From assembly GCA_013374835.1 (NCBI GenBank), contig CP055307.1, positions 471,315-535,314 of the forward strand: DNA of 64,000 bases. The letters are read 5' to 3'. The notes beneath the pieces are model-generated. The model did no database searches. It saw only the letters and a list, made by a program, of their open reading frames with translations, and was not told the origin of the DNA. Each line of letters begins with the position of its first letter. Within the stretch, counting starts at the first letter, position 1. Of this stretch, positions 5,357 through 23,307 are shown piece by piece. Both the position numbers and the translations under genes were made by a program. Origin of the DNA: Candidatus Woesebacteria bacterium (GTDB taxonomy: Bacteria > Patescibacteriota > Microgenomatia > UBA8517).

Positions 5357-5504
5357 TAGCCTCTTTTTAGGGAAATATTGGTATAAGTGTGGATTGATTT
5401 CAGAAGAGGATGAATGTTTTTGGTAATAATAAATTTTTAGCCAATCACCTTAGACATCATCTTGATTTATATTTATAAGAGGTGTAATTTTAAAAAAAGA
5501 AGTT

Positions 5505-5600
5505 GTGTTTAAGGAATCCGGTGAAAGTCCGGGGCTGTGCCGCAACCGTGAAAGACGGAAAACTAGCAACTTCATTAATCCCGAGCAGGATGGTGGTTAC
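5505..5600 (+). promoter_or_regulatory. Candidate cobalamin (B12) riboswitch aptamer
   Basis: AAGGAAUCC-GGUGAAAGUCC-GGGGCUGUGCCGCAACCGUGA fits the cobalamin-riboswitch core pattern GGUGnAAnUCC...CnGnCCCGCnACnGUnA with one mismatch. A degenerate B12-box-like GAGCAGGAUGGUGG overlaps the ATG at 5590. Confidence 0.4.
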
Positions 5601-13594: not shown

Positions 13595-15196
13595 ATGAAT
13601 AATATTTCGACTTTGAATATTAGAGATTTGTCAATTTTTAATTATATAGCAATAACAATTATTAATTTTATTGTATTTATTTTGTTGGTTACAGTCTTTT
13701 TGCACGGTAGATTTAAAGATAAAAAGAGCAAAACATTCGTTCTTATGAGTTTTTTTATGCTTGCTTGGGTGGATTTTGCTTTTTTGGCAAGAATTTTTGG
13801 GTTTTATCAAAATATTTCTTTAATTTTTTTGAGGATTGCCTGGATTGCCACACCCCCTTTGTTTTTTAGCACTTACTTAATATCCATTTTGATGGTTGAA
13901 AAAGATCGTGCGTATAAATATTTGACGCTAATTTTATTAATTATAACTTCCGTTTTAAGCTTTTTGACGGCTTTTACGGATTTAATTATTAGCGGTGTTA
14001 AATTTAAGGACGGGACGCTCGATATAATCTATGGGTATGGTTTTTTTCCCTTTTTGTTTCTTATTTTGGGGATTATGGTTTCTACGGTTGTGCCCATTCT
14101 TCGATCTCATATTAACAAAAGAACTAGATATTTTTTAGTGGGAGTTATTGTTTTTTATTTAGCGAATAGTGTTTTTAATATTGGATTACCGGTATTTAAA
14201 GGGTTTACAAGCTATTATTACTTAGGTGATTATTCTACTAGTATACTTCTTGGGTTTACGGCATATTCAATAATAAGACATAAATTATTTGATATTAAAG
14301 TCATTGGAGTTGAGGTTCTTACTGTTTTGATTTGGGCTGTTCTTTTGTCTGAGATATTTGTTGCTAAAGATTTTAATGAATTGCTGATAGATTTTGTTTT
14401 ATTGATTTTGACAGTAATATTTGGTTTTTTCTTAATAAGGAATGTTTTAAGAGAAGTTGAACAAAAGAAAGAGCTTGAGGGGTTGAATCGGAAACTTAAA
14501 GAGCTGGACCAGGTTAAGAATGAGTTTATTTCTGTTGCCGCGCATGAGCTTCGAGCGCCTTTGACTGCTGTTAAGGGATACTTGTCTATGATATTGGATG
14601 GGGATGCGGGTACGATAACAGCTCAAACAAGGGATTTTTTGCAGGATATTCAGCTTTCTACAGAGCGGATGATACGGCTTGTTAGTAATATGCTTGATGT
14701 GGGAAGGATTGAGGAAGGAAGGATCGCTTATAATCTTGAGGATGTTAATTTGACTGAAATAGTTAATACGGCTTACAGCGAGTTTAAACTGGAAGCAGAG
14801 AGAAAGAATCTTAAGTTTACGTTAGATATCCAAAGTAATGTGCGGGACCGTGTACATGTCGATCGTGATAGGCTTCATGAGGTGGTTGTTAATTTTCTAA
14901 GTAATGCTACTAAATATACAGAGACGGGTGGGATTACTATGAAACTATTTAATAAAGGTTTGAAAATCGTGAGGCTTGAGGTTATTGATACTGGAATGGG
15001 TATATCAAAGGAGGAACAAAAAAAACTTTTTAGGAAGTTTTATAGAGTTAAATCAAAAGTTGGTAAGACAATAGGCAGTGGACTGGGGCTTTATATCTCA
15101 AAGCTTTTAATTGAGAAGTTTGAGGGGAATATTGGTGTGGATTCTGAGCCTGGGAAGGGAAGTAATTTTTGGTTTGAACTGCCAGTTTCTTCTTGA
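13595..15196 (+). CDS. Sensor histidine kinase with a multi-TM N-terminal sensor domain
   Basis: 533 aa with about 7 N-terminal TM helices. H-box HELRAPLTAVKGY and HATPase_c N/G boxes (NAtKYT, DtGmGI, GsGLGL). Confidence 0.85.
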   Translation: MNNISTLNIRDLSIFNYIAITIINFIVFILLVTVFLHGRFKDKKSKTFVLMSFFMLAWVDFAFLARIFGFYQNISLIFLRIAWIATPPLFFSTYLISILMVEKDRAYKYLTLILLIITSVLSFLTAFTDLIISGVKFKDGTLDIIYGYGFFPFLFLILGIMVSTVVPILRSHINKRTRYFLVGVIVFYLANSVFNIGLPVFKGFTSYYYLGDYSTSILLGFTAYSIIRHKLFDIKVIGVEVLTVLIWAVLLSEIFVAKDFNELLIDFVLLILTVIFGFFLIRNVLREVEQKKELEGLNRKLKELDQVKNEFISVAAHELRAPLTAVKGYLSMILDGDAGTITAQTRDFLQDIQLSTERMIRLVSNMLDVGRIEEGRIAYNLEDVNLTEIVNTAYSEFKLEAERKNLKFTLDIQSNVRDRVHVDRDRLHEVVVNFLSNATKYTETGGITMKLFNKGLKIVRLEVIDTGMGISKEEQKKLFRKFYRVKSKVGKTIGSGLGLYISKLLIEKFEGNIGVDSEPGKGSNFWFELPVSS

Positions 15197-15480
15197 CTTC
15201 TTCTTCTGCTAATCTACTCCCCAAAGCGTGCAAAGAACGCTTTGCACTTTGAAACGGCTTGGGTTTTTAGGCCAAAACTTCAAAGGCCAATTTTCTAGCC
15301 TCATGCCTATCTAAGTCGGCTGGCTCCCAAAAGCGGGAGAAAAACAAGCCAAAAACCAAAAAAGGCCACTGAGTTAGAAAAAGCCTAAGAAGTAATGCCC
15401 CAAAAACCCCAAGGAAGCTCTCATTCTCCGCCCAATCTTGGGCAACCAGCTGGAAGGAATCCAGAAAGCAGGAGGGTCTG
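15193..15480 (+). repeat. Repeat B copy 1: conserved GC-rich ~290-bp leader element
   Basis: About 80-85% identical to 18331-18629 and 20159-20465. It begins TTGACT-(CTT)3CTG-CTAATCT and contains the palindrome GTGCAAAGaacgCTTTGCAC and the CTCCCaaaagcGGGAG hairpin. It ends in AGGAGG, 5 nt upstream of the small-ORF start. Confidence 0.8.
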
Positions 15481-15744
15481 ATGGGAGACAAAGATCCTCG
15501 AGACGAAACTCCTAAGGGATGGGAATGGCGTTTTGGTGGACCACCTCGAGATATGGCTCCTGGCCAGTACATGGAGCGAGCAGGTTCACTTGGGGGTGGA
15601 ATAGTAGTAGAGTACACTTCCGTCCCAACGCCAGATGGTGAAATGCTCATCCAGAAAACCTCCGAAATGCGTAACGGTCGTCCGATTGAAGCCGGACACG
15701 CTACTCGCCACGGTGGGAAGTGGTTTGACCGTTATCCGGAGTAA
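15481..15744 (+). CDS. Small GC-rich protein s1 (87 aa)
   Basis: Perfect SD AGGAGG, 5 nt, ATG. Gly/Pro-rich. Weak motif similarity to the s2 and 16301 ORFs. Confidence 0.4.
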   Translation: MGDKDPRDETPKGWEWRFGGPPRDMAPGQYMERAGSLGGGIVVEYTSVPTPDGEMLIQKTSEMRNGRPIEAGHATRHGGKWFDRYPE

Positions 15745-15781
15745 CAGGGGTTTCCAAAACTGAATAGTAGCCTATATTATA

Positions 15782-15859
15782 AAAGGGAATTGCTGCATTG
15801 TGCAGTTATCATGTTGGCTACCATGAGAAGATTCTACTATCTCAATTCCCTTTTTCTTT
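15782..15859 (+). terminator. Terminator-like long hairpin after s1
   Basis: aagggaattg (15782-15791) pairs with caattccctt (15843-15852) and is followed by TTTCTTT. The loop contains an inner hairpin ctgcattgtgcag. Confidence 0.35.
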
Positions 15860-15865
15860 AACACA

Positions 15866-16258
15866 ATGTGCAAAAGCAAAGAACAAACTTTAGCCAATCA
15901 ATTCATTTTAAAAGGGCTAAAAACACCGCTAGATCCAAAAAGATACTGGGCGCCTTTAGAAGATTCTGTGCTAATGTTGCTTGACGATTTCTTTAATAAA
16001 AAGATTGACACAAAAACAACAGGGAAGATAGGGAAGATTTTATATGAATTTCAATACTTTACATATGAACTTTATTGTGTAGATCCAGAACTTTTTAAGG
16101 TATTAGACTATCTAGTCGTTTTATATAATCCATCTGTCTTAAGGACTAAGGCTAAAAATAGTGTGAAGATTAGGCAAGCAGTAAAATTGCTTAAAAATTA
16201 TTACGAAAGCAAAAAATCGCGCGTTGATTTTTTGAGAGTTTATTTTAGTAAACAGTAA
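15866..16258 (+). CDS. Hypothetical protein, ~130-aa paralog family (member 1)
   Basis: 130 aa. Its C-terminal pattern (..YF.YEL....P......YI..) resembles that of the 16580 and 21788 ORFs. Confidence 0.45.
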   Translation: MCKSKEQTLANQFILKGLKTPLDPKRYWAPLEDSVLMLLDDFFNKKIDTKTTGKIGKILYEFQYFTYELYCVDPELFKVLDYLVVLYNPSVLRTKAKNSVKIRQAVKLLKNYYESKKSRVDFLRVYFSKQ

Positions 16259-16300
16259 AACAACCAAAGTGCTTTACTCTTTCTCATCCTTATTTAAGCA

Positions 16301-16474
16301 ATGCCTGACATTGGAGCAAGTACCCACTTTGATGAGGGAAAAGGTGGATCCGATCACCAAACTGTTTATGGTGATGGATGGCACCGCTCTTGGGACATCG
16401 ACCGAGACAACAACGTCACCCGCGATCACATCACAATCCATTGGGATAGTGGCAACCAAGTCCTGAAGGACTAG
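16301..16474 (+). CDS. Possible small GC-rich ORF (57 aa), a candidate fourth member of the s1/s2 small-protein family
   Basis: Hand translation gives MPDIGASTHFDEGKGGSDHQTVYGDGWHRSWDIDRDNNVTRDHITIHWDSGNQVLKD. It shares GW.(W/R)..(F/W)...RD and TR.H...W(F)D motifs with s1. All three frames are open here, so the coding call is uncertain. Confidence 0.2.
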   Translation: MPDIGASTHFDEGKGGSDHQTVYGDGWHRSWDIDRDNNVTRDHITIHWDSGNQVLKD

Positions 16475-16493
16475 CGCACTTTCCCTTTACCAA

Positions 16494-16552
16494 GGAAGGG
16501 TGCCTTTTGAGGTCACCAATGTGTGAGGATTAACCCACCCTTCCTTTTTTTA
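16494..16552 (+). terminator. Rho-independent terminator with a long loop
   Basis: GGAAGGGTG (16494-16502) pairs with CACCCTTCC (16536-16544) and is followed by TTTTTTTATTT. Confidence 0.45.
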
Positions 16553-16579
16553 TTTATAATATCAGTATTAATTAAATAC

Positions 16580-16912
16580 ATGGATTTTGAAGATTTATTT
16601 AATAAATACCTTGCAAATCAGCTTAAAAGAAAGATGACTGAACATGATGCAAGAGAGATATTTGAAAAAGCTGCAAAGGATTATTTTTCAAAAAAAATTA
16701 GTCTTGACTTTCTCATAGGCATAGCCACACAACTTTATTTTGAGCTTCTGAAGCCGTCTGATTATACAGGAGGGGTATTTCATAATTTAATTGAAAAAAC
16801 TGCGGATTTAGATTTTTATATTGAGGAATCTAAAAAGGGAGATAAAGAAGCAAAGAGGTACATCAAAGAATACTTTTCTGAATTAAGAGAATATATAAGT
16901 AAAGCCTCATAA
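16580..16912 (+). CDS. Hypothetical protein, ~130-aa paralog family (member 2)
   Basis: The ATG at 16580 (MDFEDLF) is preferred over the track GTG at 16523, which lies inside the terminator. Similar to 21788-22186 (DLDFYIEESKKGDKEAKRYIKEYFSELREYI vs SASDFVFFLQKNDSESKKRTKAIIKELKSYYI). Confidence 0.45.
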   Translation: MDFEDLFNKYLANQLKRKMTEHDAREIFEKAAKDYFSKKISLDFLIGIATQLYFELLKPSDYTGGVFHNLIEKTADLDFYIEESKKGDKEAKRYIKEYFSELREYISKAS

Positions 16913-16964
16913 TTCCTTGTAATTTGAATTTGTATTAACACTTGTTTTTCATCCAACTAAATAT

Positions 16965-17031
16965 AAACTCTGGGTGGAGAAAGAGTGGGTCCCCAGTCCT
17001 AGCAAATACCAATAGGTATTACTCTTTCTCC
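16965..17031 (+). repeat. Repeat A copy 1: conserved structured hairpin element
   Basis: About 90% identical to 18879-18944. An 11-bp stem GGAGAAAGAGT/ACTCTTTCTCC encloses a conserved ~35-nt loop with an inner AATACCaataGGTATT hairpin and a CUGGG...CCCAG pairing. Confidence 0.7.
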
Positions 17032-17064
17032 ATATTTGTCTTTGAAGTAAAATTAAAAGTCAAG

Positions 17065-18288
17065 ATGCTTTCTGATAATTTGAAAAATTTACATCAAGAA
17101 TATCTATTGTATTACAAAGAAAATGGCATTAAGCTTCTCCCCCATGAATTGCAAAAGAGAATTGCTTATACAGCAAAAATTGCAAGAGAAAACTACAAAA
17201 GATTAAAGCATCCTATTACTACCTCTTTAGAAAATTATATAGAAATTTGTGTCCATTTTAGTCTTTCACTAGATTTAGCGACAAGATCAGTTGAAACTGT
17301 TAATTTAACCAATCCGCCTTTTAACTTCCGTGCTGCGGCAGCATATTTTCTTGAGTTACCTTACGAGCTGCACCAGAGGATTGAAAAAGATCTATTCAAT
17401 ATTCACCCTGAAAAACGCGAAGAATTTTGGAAAGATCTTAATTTAAATATACCCAAGATAGAAAAGAAATTCATCGCTATGATTGAGGAAAGAAAACGCT
17501 TTGCACAAAGTAAAGGTTATGAGTCCCAGATTGATTTATCTTTCAAGAAATCTAAAATTCCACAATCAGTTCTAAATCGTTTTGTTGTAAATCAGGATAA
17601 ATTAATTAACTTTTGCAATCAAAATCTACCAAAGATCGGAAACAAACCAGATTGGTTTTATTCAAACTTCAGTAAAACTTGTTTTTTGTGCATGATACAA
17701 CCATTTCCCTTTAGCTCTCTAGAAAGTGTATTCGAAAAAGCGACGTTTATTCATCCAATTCTACAAAAGTATAATGAAAAAATAACTATTAAGCCTTCGG
17801 GAAGTTCGCACACCACGTATAAGGAAGGAACTGATAGCTTTGAGGTATATATTGAAAATGACCAAAACCTCCGTCATCAGATTGTTGATCTCGTCCACGA
17901 GTTGGGACATGTAATAAATAATCTTGAAGACCTAAACAAAAACAAGAATCCTTTCTTAAAAGGAAGATTCTTGGCTGAAAAAGAGGCTAATGAGATTGAA
18001 ATTGATTTTTATAAAAAGACATCAAGACTTCTTTATCAAGCTTCCTTTGGATGGATTCTTTGGTTGTTTAGAAGGACATTATTCGAGATAGAATTACACA
18101 AAAATCCACGACAAAACCTAAGCAAACTTTATGCCGATACTTATAACAAGTGTTTTAAAGGGGCAAATCAAAAATCAAACCCCACATACTTTATAGATAC
18201 TTATATCTCCCTGAGACCTTTTTCAACCCTACCCCATACGCTGGCATATTCTGAAGTAGTTACTAAACTAATAGAGAAGAAAAAGTAG
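17065..18288 (+). CDS. M3-like (oligoendopeptidase F-like) zinc metallopeptidase paralog 1, shortened
   Basis: HELGHVIN is an HExxH motif, with a Glu (AEKEANE) downstream. The PepF-like segment ERKRFAQSKGYESQIDLSF is present. ATG at 17065 preferred over the TTG at 16942, which reads through repeat A. About 30-35% identical to the 18975 paralog. Confidence 0.5.
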   Translation: MLSDNLKNLHQEYLLYYKENGIKLLPHELQKRIAYTAKIARENYKRLKHPITTSLENYIEICVHFSLSLDLATRSVETVNLTNPPFNFRAAAAYFLELPYELHQRIEKDLFNIHPEKREEFWKDLNLNIPKIEKKFIAMIEERKRFAQSKGYESQIDLSFKKSKIPQSVLNRFVVNQDKLINFCNQNLPKIGNKPDWFYSNFSKTCFLCMIQPFPFSSLESVFEKATFIHPILQKYNEKITIKPSGSSHTTYKEGTDSFEVYIENDQNLRHQIVDLVHELGHVINNLEDLNKNKNPFLKGRFLAEKEANEIEIDFYKKTSRLLYQASFGWILWLFRRTLFEIELHKNPRQNLSKLYADTYNKCFKGANQKSNPTYFIDTYISLRPFSTLPHTLAYSEVVTKLIEKKK

Positions 18289-18330
18289 TTGGAAATAAGT
18301 TTCTATGATTTGCTTTTTTCTGATTACAAC

Positions 18331-18629
18331 TTGACTTCTTCTTCTTCTGATAATCTACTCCCCAAAGCGTGCAAAAAACGTCTTGCACATTCACAGGCTT
18401 GGGTTTGAGGCTCAACTTCTAGGGAATCTTTTCTAACTTCACACCCTCAAAAACGGCTAACTCCCAAAAGCGGGAGGAAAAAACTAGCCAAATCTAAATG
18501 TGGTCAATGAGGTTAGAAAAAACCTGAAGAGGAAGAGCCAAAAAAAACCAAGGAAGCTCTCTTTTCCGCCCAATCCCGGGCAGCCCACTGGCGGGTTGCC
18601 AGATGAAATCTGAGAAAGGAGAGTCCCTA
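18331..18629 (+). repeat. Repeat B copy 2
   Basis: TTGACT-(CTT)4CTG-ATAATCT... Same conserved hairpins as copy 1. Ends with AAGGAGAG 7 nt before the ATG at 18630. Confidence 0.8.
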
Positions 18630-18857
18630 ATGGGCGATCCCGGAAGACTCATTCGGGCTAGTGATGTAAATCAAATCCCACCTGGTGCAATGGTGGTGGG
18701 AAGCTACATCATGTTCCCCGACGCCGAGGGTGGTCTGCACCCCACGCCACAAGAGCGCGTCTCGTCAGATATCCGACGGGAAAGCAATACGCGAACTATT
18801 ACTGGCGGAAACTGTGGCCAAGACCCCTCTTTGGTACCTAACGTATCAAAAAAGTGA
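18630..18857 (+). CDS. Small GC-rich protein s2 (75 aa from the SD-proximal ATG)
   Basis: Begins MGD like s1. VVGSYIMFPDAEGG resembles VVEYTSVPTPDGE in s1. Confidence 0.4.
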   Translation: MGDPGRLIRASDVNQIPPGAMVVGSYIMFPDAEGGLHPTPQERVSSDIRRESNTRTITGGNCGQDPSLVPNVSKK

Positions 18858-18878
18858 GTCTGGCCATGACAACTAAAT

Positions 18879-18944
18879 AAATTCTGGGAGGAGAAAGAGT
18901 GGGTCCCAGCCCTAGCAAATACCAATAGGTATTACTCTTTCTCC
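18879..18944 (+). repeat. Repeat A copy 2 (also serves as a terminator-like hairpin after s2)
   Basis: Same stem and loop as copy 1, followed by TTTTAAGTT. Confidence 0.7.
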
Positions 18945-18974
18945 TTTTAAGTTCCAAAATAGTAAAATAAGAAA

Positions 18975-20162
18975 GTGTACACCTACTTAAAAATCTACAG
19001 GGAAAGAGGACTCAATCCTGACATCAAATCGTTAATCAAACTTATATCTAGACAATCAAAACTTGCAAAAGATCAATACCAAAAACTAAGCACTCCCAAA
19101 ACAATGTCGGAAGGTCTTTATGTTCATGCTTGGGTAAGGAATGCTGTTATTCATGATATTTATGAAAATATAAAAATCATAAGACCAGAGCATGAATATA
19201 AAGCCTCAATAGACTTCTATTTAGCATTTCCTAACTCACTTCGTAAAAAGCTTAGAAAAGACATAAACAGTGCTACATTAGATCAAAGAGCAAAAGTGTG
19301 GAATAAATATAAGCTAGATTTTAAAAAAATAGAGAAAACATTCATAGCACTTACAATTCAAAGAAACACATGGGCTAAACAAAAAGGTTTTAAAAACTTT
19401 CTTGAAGAAAAGCTAAAACACTACAAAATACCAAGAAAAGATTATGAATTATTCAAGGCTCAAACCAACAATCTAATTAAATATTGTAATAGTCAACTGC
19501 CCAAAATAAAACTGCCATCAATTGTATTAACAGAATTTACCAAGCCTTGTTATCTTTGTCTTTCAACTAACTTTCCATTTACCAATCTTGAAGAAACAAT
19601 TAATTTTGTCTTTGGTGAATACGAAATTCTCCAGAAATTCAAAAAAAAGATAAAAATTAAATTCACTGATTATTCAGAAATGAGTTATAACGTTCAGGAC
19701 GATTCTTTTGAAATTAGTATAGAAAAAGATACTAACCTCCGTCACCAATCCCTAGCAATAATCCATGAACTAATCCATGTCGTAAATCACATTGAAAGTT
19801 ATAAAAGGGGATTCTTACCTTCCGAGAAAGGAAATTATTTTCAAGAAAAAGAAACACTAAAAAAAGAGATTCCGCTACTTAAAAAGATATCACCAGTTTT
19901 TTATAAATCCATCTTTAGTGAATTTCTTAAAGTCTTCCAACAAGTACTATTTGAAATAGAACTCTATAACAATCCTAATCAGAATTTAAGCAAGCTTTAT
20001 GCGGATGTTTACAACCTTTGCTATCCTCAGGCAAACCAAAAGCAAAATAGATCATTTATTCTGAATAAAGACATAGTAGAGCAACCCCTCTCAATCCTCC
20101 CCAACGCCATAGCCCAATCCATAGTCATCAAAAAATATTTGAAGCTGAACACATCCTCTTGA
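18975..20162 (+). CDS. M3-like zinc metallopeptidase paralog 2, shortened
   Basis: HELIHVVN is an HExxH motif. NPNQNLSKLYADVYN is conserved with paralog 1. A KQKGFKNFLEE segment is also present. Confidence 0.5.
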   Translation: MYTYLKIYRERGLNPDIKSLIKLISRQSKLAKDQYQKLSTPKTMSEGLYVHAWVRNAVIHDIYENIKIIRPEHEYKASIDFYLAFPNSLRKKLRKDINSATLDQRAKVWNKYKLDFKKIEKTFIALTIQRNTWAKQKGFKNFLEEKLKHYKIPRKDYELFKAQTNNLIKYCNSQLPKIKLPSIVLTEFTKPCYLCLSTNFPFTNLEETINFVFGEYEILQKFKKKIKIKFTDYSEMSYNVQDDSFEISIEKDTNLRHQSLAIIHELIHVVNHIESYKRGFLPSEKGNYFQEKETLKKEIPLLKKISPVFYKSIFSEFLKVFQQVLFEIELYNNPNQNLSKLYADVYNLCYPQANQKQNRSFILNKDIVEQPLSILPNAIAQSIVIKKYLKLNTSS

Positions 20163-20465
20163 CTTCTTCTTCTTCTTCTTCTGCTAACCTTGCTCCCAAA
20201 GCGTGCAAAGGACGCTTTGCACTTTGAAACGGCTTGGGTTTTTAGGCCAAAGCTTGGAGGTTTGTTTCTATCCCCATACCATCTATGATGAGCCGACTCC
20301 CAAAAGCGGGAGTAAAAACAGGCCAAACGCAAAAACGGTCACTGGGTAGAAAAAGCTAAAGAAACAAAGCCAAAAAACTCCAAGGAGGCTCTCATTCTCC
20401 GCCCAATCCCGGGCAACCAGCTGGAAGGAATCCGGTAAAGGGAGACAAAAAGACAGGAGGTTTCT
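20159..20465 (+). repeat. Repeat B copy 3
   Basis: TTGACT-(CTT)5CTG-CTAACCT, giving an optimal 17-nt spacer. Ends AGGAGG, 5 nt, then GTG. Confidence 0.8.
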
Positions 20466-20657
20466 GTGAATAACAGCAAGGGAAGCGGCGGAAAAGCAGG
20501 CAGTACTTCCATAACAGTAAAGCTGCCCATGGATCTGTCTCTCATAAAGGAACTTAACCAACAGTTCACTGTGGAAGAGGCTGCCAAGCAAACAAGCACC
20601 ACAAAACAGGAAGCAAAAGAAGCCTGGAAAGCCGCAAAGGAAGATAGTAGCAACTAG
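20466..20657 (+). CDS. Small protein s3 (63 aa, GTG start), Lys/Ala/Glu-rich and unrelated to s1/s2
   Basis: Perfect SD spacing. Contains a helical KEAWKAAKE-type C-terminal region. Confidence 0.35.
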   Translation: MNNSKGSGGKAGSTSITVKLPMDLSLIKELNQQFTVEEAAKQTSTTKQEAKEAWKAAKEDSSN

Positions 20658-20695
20658 GTTTCTGAACATTAGAGCTTCCTAATATCTCAACTCAT

Positions 20696-20760
20696 GGAAT
20701 GTCGGATTCCATAGCAGTCATAATAAGATATGCTAAGAGTCCGACATTCCAAATCATCTT
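20696..20760 (+). terminator. Long hairpin after s3
   Basis: GGAATGTCGGATTC (20696-20709) pairs with GAGTCCGACATTCC (20737-20750), a 14-bp stem with one G-U pair. The downstream U-tract is weak. Confidence 0.3.
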
Positions 20761-20785
20761 TCAAAAAATATATAATTAACCCAAT

Positions 20786-21118
20786 ATGAAACAAGCTACA
20801 ACTTTAAGTAAACAAGAAGAAGACAGACTGGTAGAAATTATAAGACTTGGACAAGAAAGTAACGCCACAGAAAAACAAAAGAAAGATTCTCTCAAAGCGA
20901 TGGAAAAACTGTTAATCTACTTACAACCATTGGTAGCAAACATTGCCTTAAAATACGCAGCAGGAACTATCCATCATGATGAACTAATTCGAATCGGAAA
21001 TATTGGAGTAAGAAAAGCAATACTTAAATATAATCCCAATAGAAACTTTAAGTTTTCGACTTACGCTTCGTGGTATATTAGAGCAGAAATTCACAAGAAA
21101 TTGGGTCTTCCTCTATAA
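20786..21118 (+). CDS. Truncated sigma-70 family protein (regions 1.2 through 2.3 only)
   Basis: LVANIALKYAAGTIHHDELIRIGNIGVRKAILKYNPNRNFKFSTYASWYIRAEI matches sigma70 region 2 (..FSTYATWWIRQAI..). The ORF stops after region 2.3, so regions 2.4, 3 and 4 are absent. Confidence 0.5.
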   Translation: MKQATTLSKQEEDRLVEIIRLGQESNATEKQKKDSLKAMEKLLIYLQPLVANIALKYAAGTIHHDELIRIGNIGVRKAILKYNPNRNFKFSTYASWYIRAEIHKKLGLPL

Positions 21119-21158
21119 TCTAGTTTTAAATTTCTCTGTTATCCATAATTGAATAAAT

Positions 21159-21641
21159 ATGGACGTTAAGCTTAAAAAATTATTTTATGAAGACAAGATC
21201 CTTCGTGTTTTAGGTCCTGAATGGAAAAGAGTAAAACGGTTTATAGGTGATGAGGAAGTTGAGGTAAGAAATAGTTTTTTCTTAGAGACAAAAGATGGGA
21301 TTAAAATTGAGTTTTTTATCTTATCCCCAGAAACATACCAAGAATGTTATTCGGTTAAAATAGAACAATATGTTCGCAGAAAAAGTAAAGAAAGTGGTGG
21401 TTACTACAGCGAAGTATCAACTATTCATTTTCAAGAAATAACAACTGTGAAGTATTTTTATAAATTGGGAATGATAGCAATGATTAGCAAGCAGAAGGAT
21501 TATTTTTCCGACCTCTGGTTATACAAAAGCGGAGCAGTCAGAATATCGGTTGCGCACCCCATATCCTTTTACAACAAACAAGACTTATGGACATATGATA
21601 TGGCCAACCGCGAAGGCGAAGAGGTTTTTACATTAGAATAA
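21159..21641 (+). CDS. Hypothetical protein
   Basis: 160-aa ORF with no recognised domain. Confidence 0.4.
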   Translation: MDVKLKKLFYEDKILRVLGPEWKRVKRFIGDEEVEVRNSFFLETKDGIKIEFFILSPETYQECYSVKIEQYVRRKSKESGGYYSEVSTIHFQEITTVKYFYKLGMIAMISKQKDYFSDLWLYKSGAVRISVAHPISFYNKQDLWTYDMANREGEEVFTLE

Positions 21642-21787
21642 CCCACTTTCTTGTCTATATTATATTAATGTTTTACTTTGTAAAGCTAAAAAAGATTAAT
21701 TCTCAAAATAGGTATAAACATATTCAAACACAAGACTACTAAGGAAGACCAAAAGACGATTACCTTTAAATAAAATATAATTATTTT

Positions 21788-22186
21788 ATGAGAGCTAAAA
21801 GAAAAACTAAAAGCAAATCTGGCTTTGAGAGATATGATTATGTCTTTTCAGGAATTAAACTATCAGAACCTCTTTCTATTAAACAAATTAAGTCAATTTT
21901 TTTGATATTACTTCATGATTATTTTCAAAATGAAATAGATGAATTTTTTCTAGAATCTTTAGCAGGTGATTTGTATTTTAACCTATCTGAATCACCAAAC
22001 TATATACAGGCAAAAGACCCTGAACTAAGTCTGGCTCTTGATAGCGCATCAGATTTTGTTTTCTTTCTTCAGAAGAATGATTCTGAAAGCAAGAAAAGAA
22101 CTAAAGCAATAATTAAGGAATTAAAAAGCTATTATATTAAAAATCGCAATGAAATAGAGCATTATTCTCATGATTCCAGTGATTGA
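21788..22186 (+). CDS. Hypothetical protein, ~130-aa paralog family (member 3)
   Basis: Similar to the 16580 and 15866 proteins. Confidence 0.45.
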   Translation: MRAKRKTKSKSGFERYDYVFSGIKLSEPLSIKQIKSIFLILLHDYFQNEIDEFFLESLAGDLYFNLSESPNYIQAKDPELSLALDSASDFVFFLQKNDSESKKRTKAIIKELKSYYIKNRNEIEHYSHDSSD

Positions 22187-22299
22187 TTTTGATTCCATTA
22201 ATGGGGGGATTTAGGAAAGCAGATTATGATTTTTTGCTCTTGCACAGCCTGTGTTGCTATCAAAACGATGAGTTGGGCAATAAGTATTACAACCTAAGA

Positions 22300-22959
22300 C
22301 TAGAGATAATCTCTCCATTTATTATCCTGAATTATCTCTGGAATAGATTTTTTTTGTTTTACCAACCACGCTCGTAATTTTTGTTGGGCAGGATACCCCT
22401 TTTCTTCTGGATTAGTGAATACAGTTAAAGCTTCTTTAAGTGATTCAAATTTTTCTTTTCCCAACTCCTTTTTTAGATTCCCAAAATAATAATAAAACAT
22501 AAAATGATTAAGTTCATGAGTTAGAATTTGAAGCTGTCTTTCAGGAATTGCCCCTCCAAAAACCATAATCCATTTCTTTTCAAAATTGTAAGGACAAATT
22601 GGCAGAGAAGAAAGATATATTTTGATTTGTTTGAATGGGATCTTGCGCCCATATATTTTTTGTAGTCTATTTTCTATTTGGGAACCGTTTTTCACCCATG
22701 CCGATTTCAGCTCTTGAGCAACAACTGAATATTTTGCCTTTCTACTCTCTAAATTCTGGGAAAGGAAATCTTTAATTATATTTCTTGCTTGTTTTTCGCT
22801 TTTACTATTTTTAAGATCAATCCTAACCCTCTCCGGGAGAGCGCTAAAAAATTTATCTTGAAGATTGTCCCTTCCATGTTTGTACCACACAAACTTATAA
22901 ACAGATCTTAAATAATTCCATACATCAAGATCCAACGAATAACTTACTTTTATATCCAT
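22300..22959 (-). CDS. Hypothetical HExxH protein (possible zinc metallohydrolase)
   Basis: 219 aa; HExxH motif ILTHELNHFMF. Confidence 0.4.
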   Translation of the reverse strand: MDIKVSYSLDLDVWNYLRSVYKFVWYKHGRDNLQDKFFSALPERVRIDLKNSKSEKQARNIIKDFLSQNLESRKAKYSVVAQELKSAWVKNGSQIENRLQKIYGRKIPFKQIKIYLSSLPICPYNFEKKWIMVFGGAIPERQLQILTHELNHFMFYYYFGNLKKELGKEKFESLKEALTVFTNPEEKGYPAQQKLRAWLVKQKKSIPEIIQDNKWRDYL

Positions 22960-23307
22960 AAATGTATAAGCTTTATTTTAGCTTTCAGTTACAACTAGGT
23001 TTGGTTTAAAATCTGGATCTGGTGCCCTTCACAAATGTCAAAGCAATCTCCAGAGTCAAAGCGACTACAGTCGCTTGCATCACAATTCTGCCATCTTGTA
23101 TAAATTATACTCTAAAAATTAACAAGCTTGTGATGGATATAATGATTATATCGCGAACATCTAACTGTTTGTTTTAGATATTAAATCTATAGTTTTTAAA
23201 ATAAAGGCAAGCTGATACAAAAATTCAGAGGGTTAGAAAAAGCCAGAGAAACAAATCCTTAGAAAAAAATTAAATTACTATTTTTTGGTTTTATGGTATT
23301 ATAGGAT

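Follow-up and report, generated by a model that had tools for sequence, protein, structure and literature searches.

The stretch of 64,000 nucleotides analysed here (Candidatus Woesebacteria bacterium, contig CP055307.1, positions 471,315 to 535,314 of the forward strand; referred to as the window) contains three tandem cassettes, each of which begins with a short module composed of the hexamer TTGACT, an unbroken (CTT)n tract and a sequence resembling an extended -10 element. Behind this promoter-like head come a structured 5' leader (about 265 nt), a small-protein gene and, in most cases, the gene of an HExxH-motif protein of about 400 aa. We read the module as a cassette promoter that would depend on the TGn motif (TG one base before the -10 hexamer) and whose spacer microsatellite changes on evolutionary timescales, an interpretation to which we give roughly even chances. 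Each CTT tract would thus form part of the promoter module of a cassette duplicated in tandem and would set the distance to the conserved -35-like TTGACT, and transcription would begin a few bases past the module, at the conserved CCAAAGCG with which the leader starts. Since the TGn extended -10 skeleton is the only feature shared by all ten loci, we infer that the start at CCAAAGCG leaves the CTT tract outside the cassette's own transcript. Slippage would have changed the repeat number between paralogues, strains and species, and with n fixed at the consensus level in every sampled population the tract would represent a slowly evolving tuning element.

The CTT module as a candidate promoter

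All three modules lie on the forward strand and follow the formula TTGACT-T(CTT)n-1-CTG-N-TA-NNN-T, in which the spacer between the two hexamers amounts to 3n+2 nt. In cassette 1 the TTGACT (15193-15198) leads into (CTT)3 (15197-15205) and CTGC-TAATCT (15206-15215), which results in a spacer of 11 nt. Cassette 2 carries TTGACT at 18331-18336, (CTT)4 at 18335-18346 and CTGA-TAATCT at 18347-18356, the latter also containing GATAAT, with a spacer of 14 nt. The corresponding elements of cassette 3 are TTGACT at 20159-20164, (CTT)6 at 20163-20180 and CTGC-TAACCT at 20181-20190, separated by 20 nt.

This motif order had been recognised at all three heads in the original prediction, and exact counting confirmed the repeat numbers and spacers given there for copies 1 and 2. 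For copy 3 it had assumed (CTT)5, a 17-nt spacer and an end at 20187. Its conclusion that this copy alone shows canonical -35/-10 spacing hence goes back to a miscount, and the canonical 17 nt is found in none of the three copies. A sigma-70 scan, set to a spacer of 16-18 nt and at least 4/6 matches per hexamer, accordingly reported no promoter at the three heads. The overlap of TTGACT with the upstream stop codon, likewise claimed for every copy, applies to copies 1 and 3, where the TGA terminates a histidine kinase open reading frame (ORF; 13595-15196) and the ORF of a 395-aa HExxH protein (18975-20162), respectively. It does not apply to copy 2, which is intergenic: the upstream ORF stops at 18288, 43 nt earlier, and the TGA of TTGACT is out of frame.

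At distances of 11, 14 and 20 nt the TTGACT would not be able to act as a classical -35. From this unusable spacing it would follow that the three promoters are probably weak and dependent on TGn, or that they need a factor reading TTGACT and the CTT repeat.

The CTT tracts at the cassette heads are not due to chance. Based on the base composition, the expected number per strand is 0.37 for n=3, 0.0066 for n=4 and 2e-6 for n=6. Apart from the tracts at the cassette heads, no trinucleotide repeat with n>=4 occurs in the window, and Tandem Repeats Finder reported a single period-3 array, located at 20163-20182 and corresponding to the copy 3 tract. The three remaining (CTT)3 runs of the window (26708, 26811 and 29915) are all situated within long ORFs and lack the flanking motif.

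Further functions of the module were considered and rejected. An upstream ORF reading TTG-ACT-(TCT)n (Met-Thr-Ser(n)) shares the motif PKACK.R in five copies but has no Shine-Dalgarno sequence; moreover, its start is replaced by TGG in the copy at L025:7349, and indels of 1 nt shift its frame in L022a, L022b and L005. Read-through or recoding of the TGA to a poly-Leu extension would be in frame in copies 1 and 3 only and not in copy 2 or the L022 copies. ORFs on the minus strand over the tracts read EEE, KKKK and RRRRRR, that is, in three different frames, which argues against antisense coding. By inspection, neither the GG-N10-GC spacing of a sigma-54 promoter nor AAC/CGT-type elements of an extracytoplasmic function (ECF)-type promoter were present, and no integron integrase was found nearby that would support an attC reading.

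Pattern scans of public collections did not reveal homologous leaders (no matches in viral contigs and none in the first genome scan), and a hairpin pattern gave only chance matches in metagenome and genome collections. The leaders were located instead on contigs encoding homologues of the HExxH protein, which are denoted here by L numbers. A profile search with nhmmer detected full leaders in L022 (117-415, 2359-2655 and 3762-4046), L025 (7363-7631) and L027 (7367-7626) and fragments in L005-L008. The more distant L028, L030, L033 and L034 contain leaders of similar length that could not be aligned.

These relatives provide support for a promoter at the head of each leader, as far as can be judged from sequence comparison. 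L027, L033 and L034, from three Microgenomates-like genomes, possess sigma-70 promoters matching the consensus at 11 of 12 positions (TTGACA-17-TATATT, TTGACA-18-TACAAT and TTGACA-16-TGaTATATT), whose -10 elements end 261, 265 and 286 nt, respectively, before the start of the small ORF, and in L030 TGGTATAAT is located about 276 nt upstream of the small ORF. The TAAYCT hexamers of the window end at matching positions, namely 266, 274 and 279 nt before the small ORFs of cassettes 1, 2 and 3. In addition, the CTT module heads three leader types, the long leader and two unrelated short ones (L022:5624 and L025:6256). Because it also occurs ahead of these unrelated short leaders, it is considered a separable 5' unit. 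All CTT-bearing copies agree at every position of the head (TTGA to CTG, 16-19 aligned columns, 100% identity), compared to an identity of 59-82% in the leader bodies. Conservation starts about 3 bases before TTGACT, and further upstream the copies are unrelated. The sequence CTG-N-TA-NNN-T is kept in 10/10 loci and corresponds to the skeleton of a TGn extended -10 element with A(-11) and T(-7). The sigma-70 scan revealed no alternative promoter near the heads, which we count in favour of a promoter at the head itself.

The canonical promoters of L027 and L033 are devoid of TGn. A TGn compensating for an uncontacted -35 would fit this distribution; L034, which has TGn together with a 16-nt spacer, runs counter to it.

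Several points weigh against a TGn-dependent promoter with a slowly changing spacer. The -10 hexamers match TATAAT at only 3/6 positions. The motif TGNTAWAAT is not enriched in the window (11 observed versus 13.3 expected), and for this reason extended -10 promoters cannot be demonstrated to be typical of this genome. RNAalifold pairs the tract with the Shine-Dalgarno region of the leader, which would be relevant if read-through transcripts contain the tract. The assemblies used to compare repeat numbers represent consensus sequences, in which minority length variants would be hidden. Finally, the perfect TTGACT and the pure repeat need another explanation if the -35 is unusable at the present spacings. 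Candidates are a protein binding this region, repeated passage through n=5 and gene conversion. Since a purely passive model accounts neither for the pure tract nor for the perfect TTGACT, a switch and a protein counting the repeat both remain to be weighed.

In the latter case TTGACT-(CTT)n would be bound by a dedicated activator, repressor or alternative sigma factor, and n would set its affinity or phasing. The strict purity of the tract and the strict conservation of its flanks irrespective of n, the latter also reported for the vlhA promoters of Mycoplasma gallisepticum (PMC6258824), are compatible with such a reader, the weak -10 hexamers suggest a need for activation, and sigma-related genes are found nearby (an ORF at 20786-21118 comprising sigma-70 region 2 only, and a sigma gene of the ECF type close to the cassette of L028). 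However, no candidate DNA-binding protein consistently co-occurs with the cassettes, n ranges from 0 to 6 compared to mostly 6-12 in vlhA, and the copy with n=0 still possesses an intact leader and ORF. We therefore regard a protein reading the repeat as quite unlikely.

Repeat number among loci, strains and assemblies

Ten loci from four lineages could be compared. In addition to n=3, 4 and 6 in the window, n is 3 in the L005 strain, 4, 4, 3 and 4 in the four cassettes of L022, and 5 and 0 in L025. The 17-nt spacer resulting from n=5 thus occurs at one locus (L025:6256). At this site the gene of an rve_3 integrase/transposase (L025:5188-6309) ends on top of the CTT module. In the copy without CTT units (L025:7349) the hexamer reads TGGACT, while leader, Shine-Dalgarno sequence and ORF are intact. 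Not a single substitution was found among the 36 CTT units read over nine copies.

The orthologue of copy 3 in a related strain, which is about 95% identical downstream of the tract, has n=3 instead of the n=6 of the window. On the other hand, at copies 1 and 2 n is the same in the window and the independent contig L003, and at copy 3 it is the same in the window, L001 and L002; it also agrees among L022, L023 and L024 and among L005-L008, a set that includes a contig found again in 15 samples. Altogether, independent assemblies of one and the same population were compared about 11 times, and no length difference was seen at the consensus level. Because n differs among paralogues and between strains of about 95% identity, the CTT tract is, judging from these alignments, labile on evolutionary timescales. 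A role as a rapid on/off switch is unproven, and the evidence leans against it.

The original prediction had interpreted the modules as phase-variable promoters, with TTGACT as -35 and TAAYCT as -10. Slippage would move the spacer in steps of 3 bp (11, 14, 17 and 20 nt) and only n=5 would be ON. With the corrected count this would imply stochastic, reversible switching of each cassette with all three window cassettes currently OFF. The position of the tract exactly between the -35-like and the -10-like element, and the 17-nt spacer at L025:6256, agree with this proposal, and so does the variation of n among paralogues and between the strains mentioned above. The pure repeats and the perfect TTGACT, kept despite an unusable spacing, would be expected if n=5 were passed through regularly. 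Moreover, a multigene family whose members each have their own trinucleotide repeat resembles vlhA of M. gallisepticum (PMC6258824).

Were n=5 the functional state, one would nevertheless expect to meet it often, and a spacer of 16-18 nt is present in none of the three window copies and in one of ten loci overall. The tracts of 9-12 bp (n=3-4) are shorter than the usual hypermutable lengths (PMC6321876, PMC2651432). PhasomeIt applies a cut-off of >=5 units for tetra- and pentanucleotide repeats and excludes trinucleotide repeats (PMC6321876); measured against five units, copies 1 and 2 (n=3 and 4) fall below and copy 3 (n=6) lies above. In Haemophilus influenzae the trinucleotide tracts located within ORFs (15 of 18) have <=4 units and show no phase-like variation (PMC2651432). 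In addition, a change from n=3 to n=5 would require two slippage steps, the assemblies agree in length, and the encoded proteins bear no sign of being surface antigens. Phase variation is thus unsupported so far, and we consider it an unlikely explanation. It seems similarly doubtful that the cassettes represent contingency loci in which (CTT)n serves as a slipped-strand switch or as a repeat counted by a protein, only n=5 being strongly transcribed, in a subset of cassettes that changes from cell to cell.

Leader RNA and gene products of the cassettes

The leaders are about 265-275 nt long, GC-rich within an AT-rich genome, end with a strong Shine-Dalgarno sequence and are always located 5' of a small ORF. 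Leader 1 (15216-15480, forward strand as all cassette features below; about 265 nt) ends with GGAGG and folds clearly better than shuffled sequences (z-score -3.8), as does leader 2 (18357-18629; z-score -4.1), while leader 3 (20191-20465) reached a z-score of -1.4. In an alignment of eight leader sequences, including those of the window, compensatory changes were observed in 17 of the 52 consensus pairs. None of 500 shuffled alignments reached the observed value, and controls with slid partners were far lower. As these compensatory changes exceed all shuffled and slid controls, the leader is regarded as a structured RNA. A search with Rfam 15 over the leaders yielded no match at the gathering threshold nor at E<=5. 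This undescribed leader RNA is perhaps the feature of greater interest here.

The structure also bears on a possible function of the repeat at the RNA level. If the CUU-rich tract were transcribed, by read-through or from an upstream start, it could pair, as an anti-Shine-Dalgarno strand, with the purine-rich AGAAAGGAGG about 280 nt downstream, close the leader and mask the ribosome-binding site. In the RNAalifold structure of the eight sequences, the last CUU units indeed pair with the Shine-Dalgarno region (93.8% of cells paired), and in the minimum-free-energy folds of all three single copies the tract is likewise paired with the leader's 3' end. Covariation does not support this helix, however (its score was attained in 229 of 500 shuffles), and with only three sequences the tract was paired to an internal AAGAAG instead. 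When the partner was slid by 1-3 columns, 58-80% of the cells were still paired, which indicates that the putative anti-Shine-Dalgarno helix reflects generic complementarity between pyrimidines and purines. The copy at L025:7349 retains the full leader and its Shine-Dalgarno sequence without any tract, and the module also heads unrelated short leaders. Furthermore, no promoter was detected ahead of the tract, and this reading would not account for the conserved TTGACT. A role of the repeat in the RNA is hence very unlikely.

The small ORF of cassette 1 (15481-15744) encodes an orphan protein of 87 aa. Cassette 2 encodes a protein of 75 aa (18630-18857) belonging to a small-protein family with the pattern GGLHPTPQE...GGCGQDP, and the 63-aa ORF of cassette 3 (20466-20657) starts with GTG after AGGAGG. 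Members of the GGLHPTPQE...GGCGQDP family (68-83 aa) form a conserved gene pair with a protein of about 400 aa that has an invariant HExxH and a downstream E. The pair is present in the window (18630-18857 and 18975-20162, with a further HExxH gene at 17062-18288) and in L022, L025, L027, L030, L033 and L034. As the small ORF preceding the HExxH gene encodes a member of a conserved family, the cassettes are considered real transcription units. No match to the HExxH family was obtained among solved structures, and its Pfam matches were weak and below threshold, most often to Peptidase_M78. The proteins encoded by the cassettes show no sign of being surface antigens; they appear to be either small and cytoplasmic or HExxH proteins. 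A homologue of the 395-aa HExxH protein is annotated from Candidatus Blackburnbacteria, and the organism belongs to the candidate phyla radiation (CPR) and has a low GC content.

A second conserved intergenic element is located between the small ORFs and the HExxH genes (16966-17031 and 18886-18944). It consists of an 11-bp stem, GGAGAAAGAGT/ACTCTTTCTCC, around AATACCAATAGGTATT and a subsequent T-rich run, its 40-nt core is 98% identical between the two copies, and it resembles a terminator or attenuator.

In the related strain represented by L005 (9500-9900) and L006-L008, the locus of cassette 3 adjoins the gene of seryl-tRNA synthetase. Of the HExxH gene only the last ~100 nt are left there, and the leader, of which the first ~85 nt persist, is fused into the small ORF. 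Cassettes have therefore been gained, lost and degraded between close relatives. The L025 contig ends about 110 nt past its HExxH gene.

Directly past cassette 3, the ORF at 20786-21118 (110 aa) comprises nothing but sigma-70 region 2 (Pfam E=3.6e-11). It shares more than 90% identity with its counterpart in the related strain L005 and may represent either a sigma factor that has been truncated or a small sigma-like protein. A further family of small, GC-rich ORFs is characterised by the motif YGDGWH(I/R)SW and was detected at 16301-16474 of the window as well as at L022:2656-2898 and L022:5738-5951. One of its members appears to be driven by a CTT module via a short leader.

The leader and small-ORF stretches between 15000 and 23000 have a GC content of 0.42-0.44 compared to about 0.30-0.35, and the GC skew is near zero or negative across 15000-23000 and about +0.2 in the rest of the window. 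This composition may reflect an island with a different history, or the leaders, which are rich in C and A. Outside the cassette region, an AdoCbl-II (cobalamin) riboswitch aptamer was identified at 5500-5572 above the Rfam gathering threshold (38.7 bits, E=1.2e-5).

Significance and comparison with known systems

Because CPR/Patescibacteria are uncultured, their gene regulation has received very little study. The locus offers a defined promoter module, conserved over several lineages and equipped with a built-in element of variable length, ahead of a structured leader RNA not described so far and of two uncharacterised proteins, the small one and the HExxH protein. Literature searches retrieved no paper on phase variation based on simple sequence repeats (SSRs) in CPR/Patescibacteria, and to our knowledge it has not been described in this group. 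If n controls expression, the range of SSR-based stochastic or tunable control would include environmental ultra-small bacteria in addition to host-associated pathogens. If n has no control, the locus would illustrate the persistence of a microsatellite inside a promoter relying on an extended -10 element. Should the switch exist, it would be a rare case of a trinucleotide unit in the spacer between -35 and -10.

The closest analogue is the vlhA (pMGA) family of M. gallisepticum, also a tandem multigene family of a genome-reduced bacterium, every member of which carries a separate, uninterrupted trinucleotide repeat. The (GAA)n of vlhA and the (CTT)n described here belong to the same sequence class, CTT being AAG/GAA on the other strand. 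In both systems the flanks are conserved whatever the repeat number, and n differs among paralogues and between orthologues of different strains (PMC6258824). In vlhA, 12 repeats are linked to the highest expression (PMC6258824), and an activator has been proposed to recognise (GAA)12. In contrast to the CTT tracts, which are situated between the -35-like and the -10-like elements, the vlhA repeats lie some 40 nt before the transcription start and do not form part of the promoter, which is of a non-sigma-70 type, and they mostly comprise 6-12 units compared to 0-6 here. The vlhA genes encode surface lipoproteins, whereas the cassettes encode small cytoplasmic-looking proteins and HExxH proteins.

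Repeats in promoter spacers can cause transcriptional phase variation, as in the opc gene of Neisseria meningitidis (poly-C). In hifA/hifB of H. influenzae, with (TA)n (PMC2651432), and in porA of N. meningitidis, with poly-G (PMC3639595), a pure repeat between -35 and -10 sets the spacer, as does the CTT tract. However, promoters of this type contain mono- or dinucleotide tracts of hypermutable length that vary by 1-2 bp around the optimum and do so within strains. The module analysed here has a 3-bp unit, tracts of 9-18 bp and spacers of 11, 14 and 20 nt, and shows no variation within populations at the consensus level.

With regard to its -10 region, the module resembles extended -10 promoters of the sigma-70 type, in which TG one base before the hexamer is combined with T(-12), A(-11) and T(-7), the positions that are also kept here. 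It appears to differ from them in that its hexamers match TATAAT at 3/6 positions, yet a perfect TTGACT is retained at distances that would be non-functional. Extended -10 (TGn) promoters can work without a correctly spaced -35, and such a -35-independent function would explain why the module tolerates spacers of 2-20 nt.

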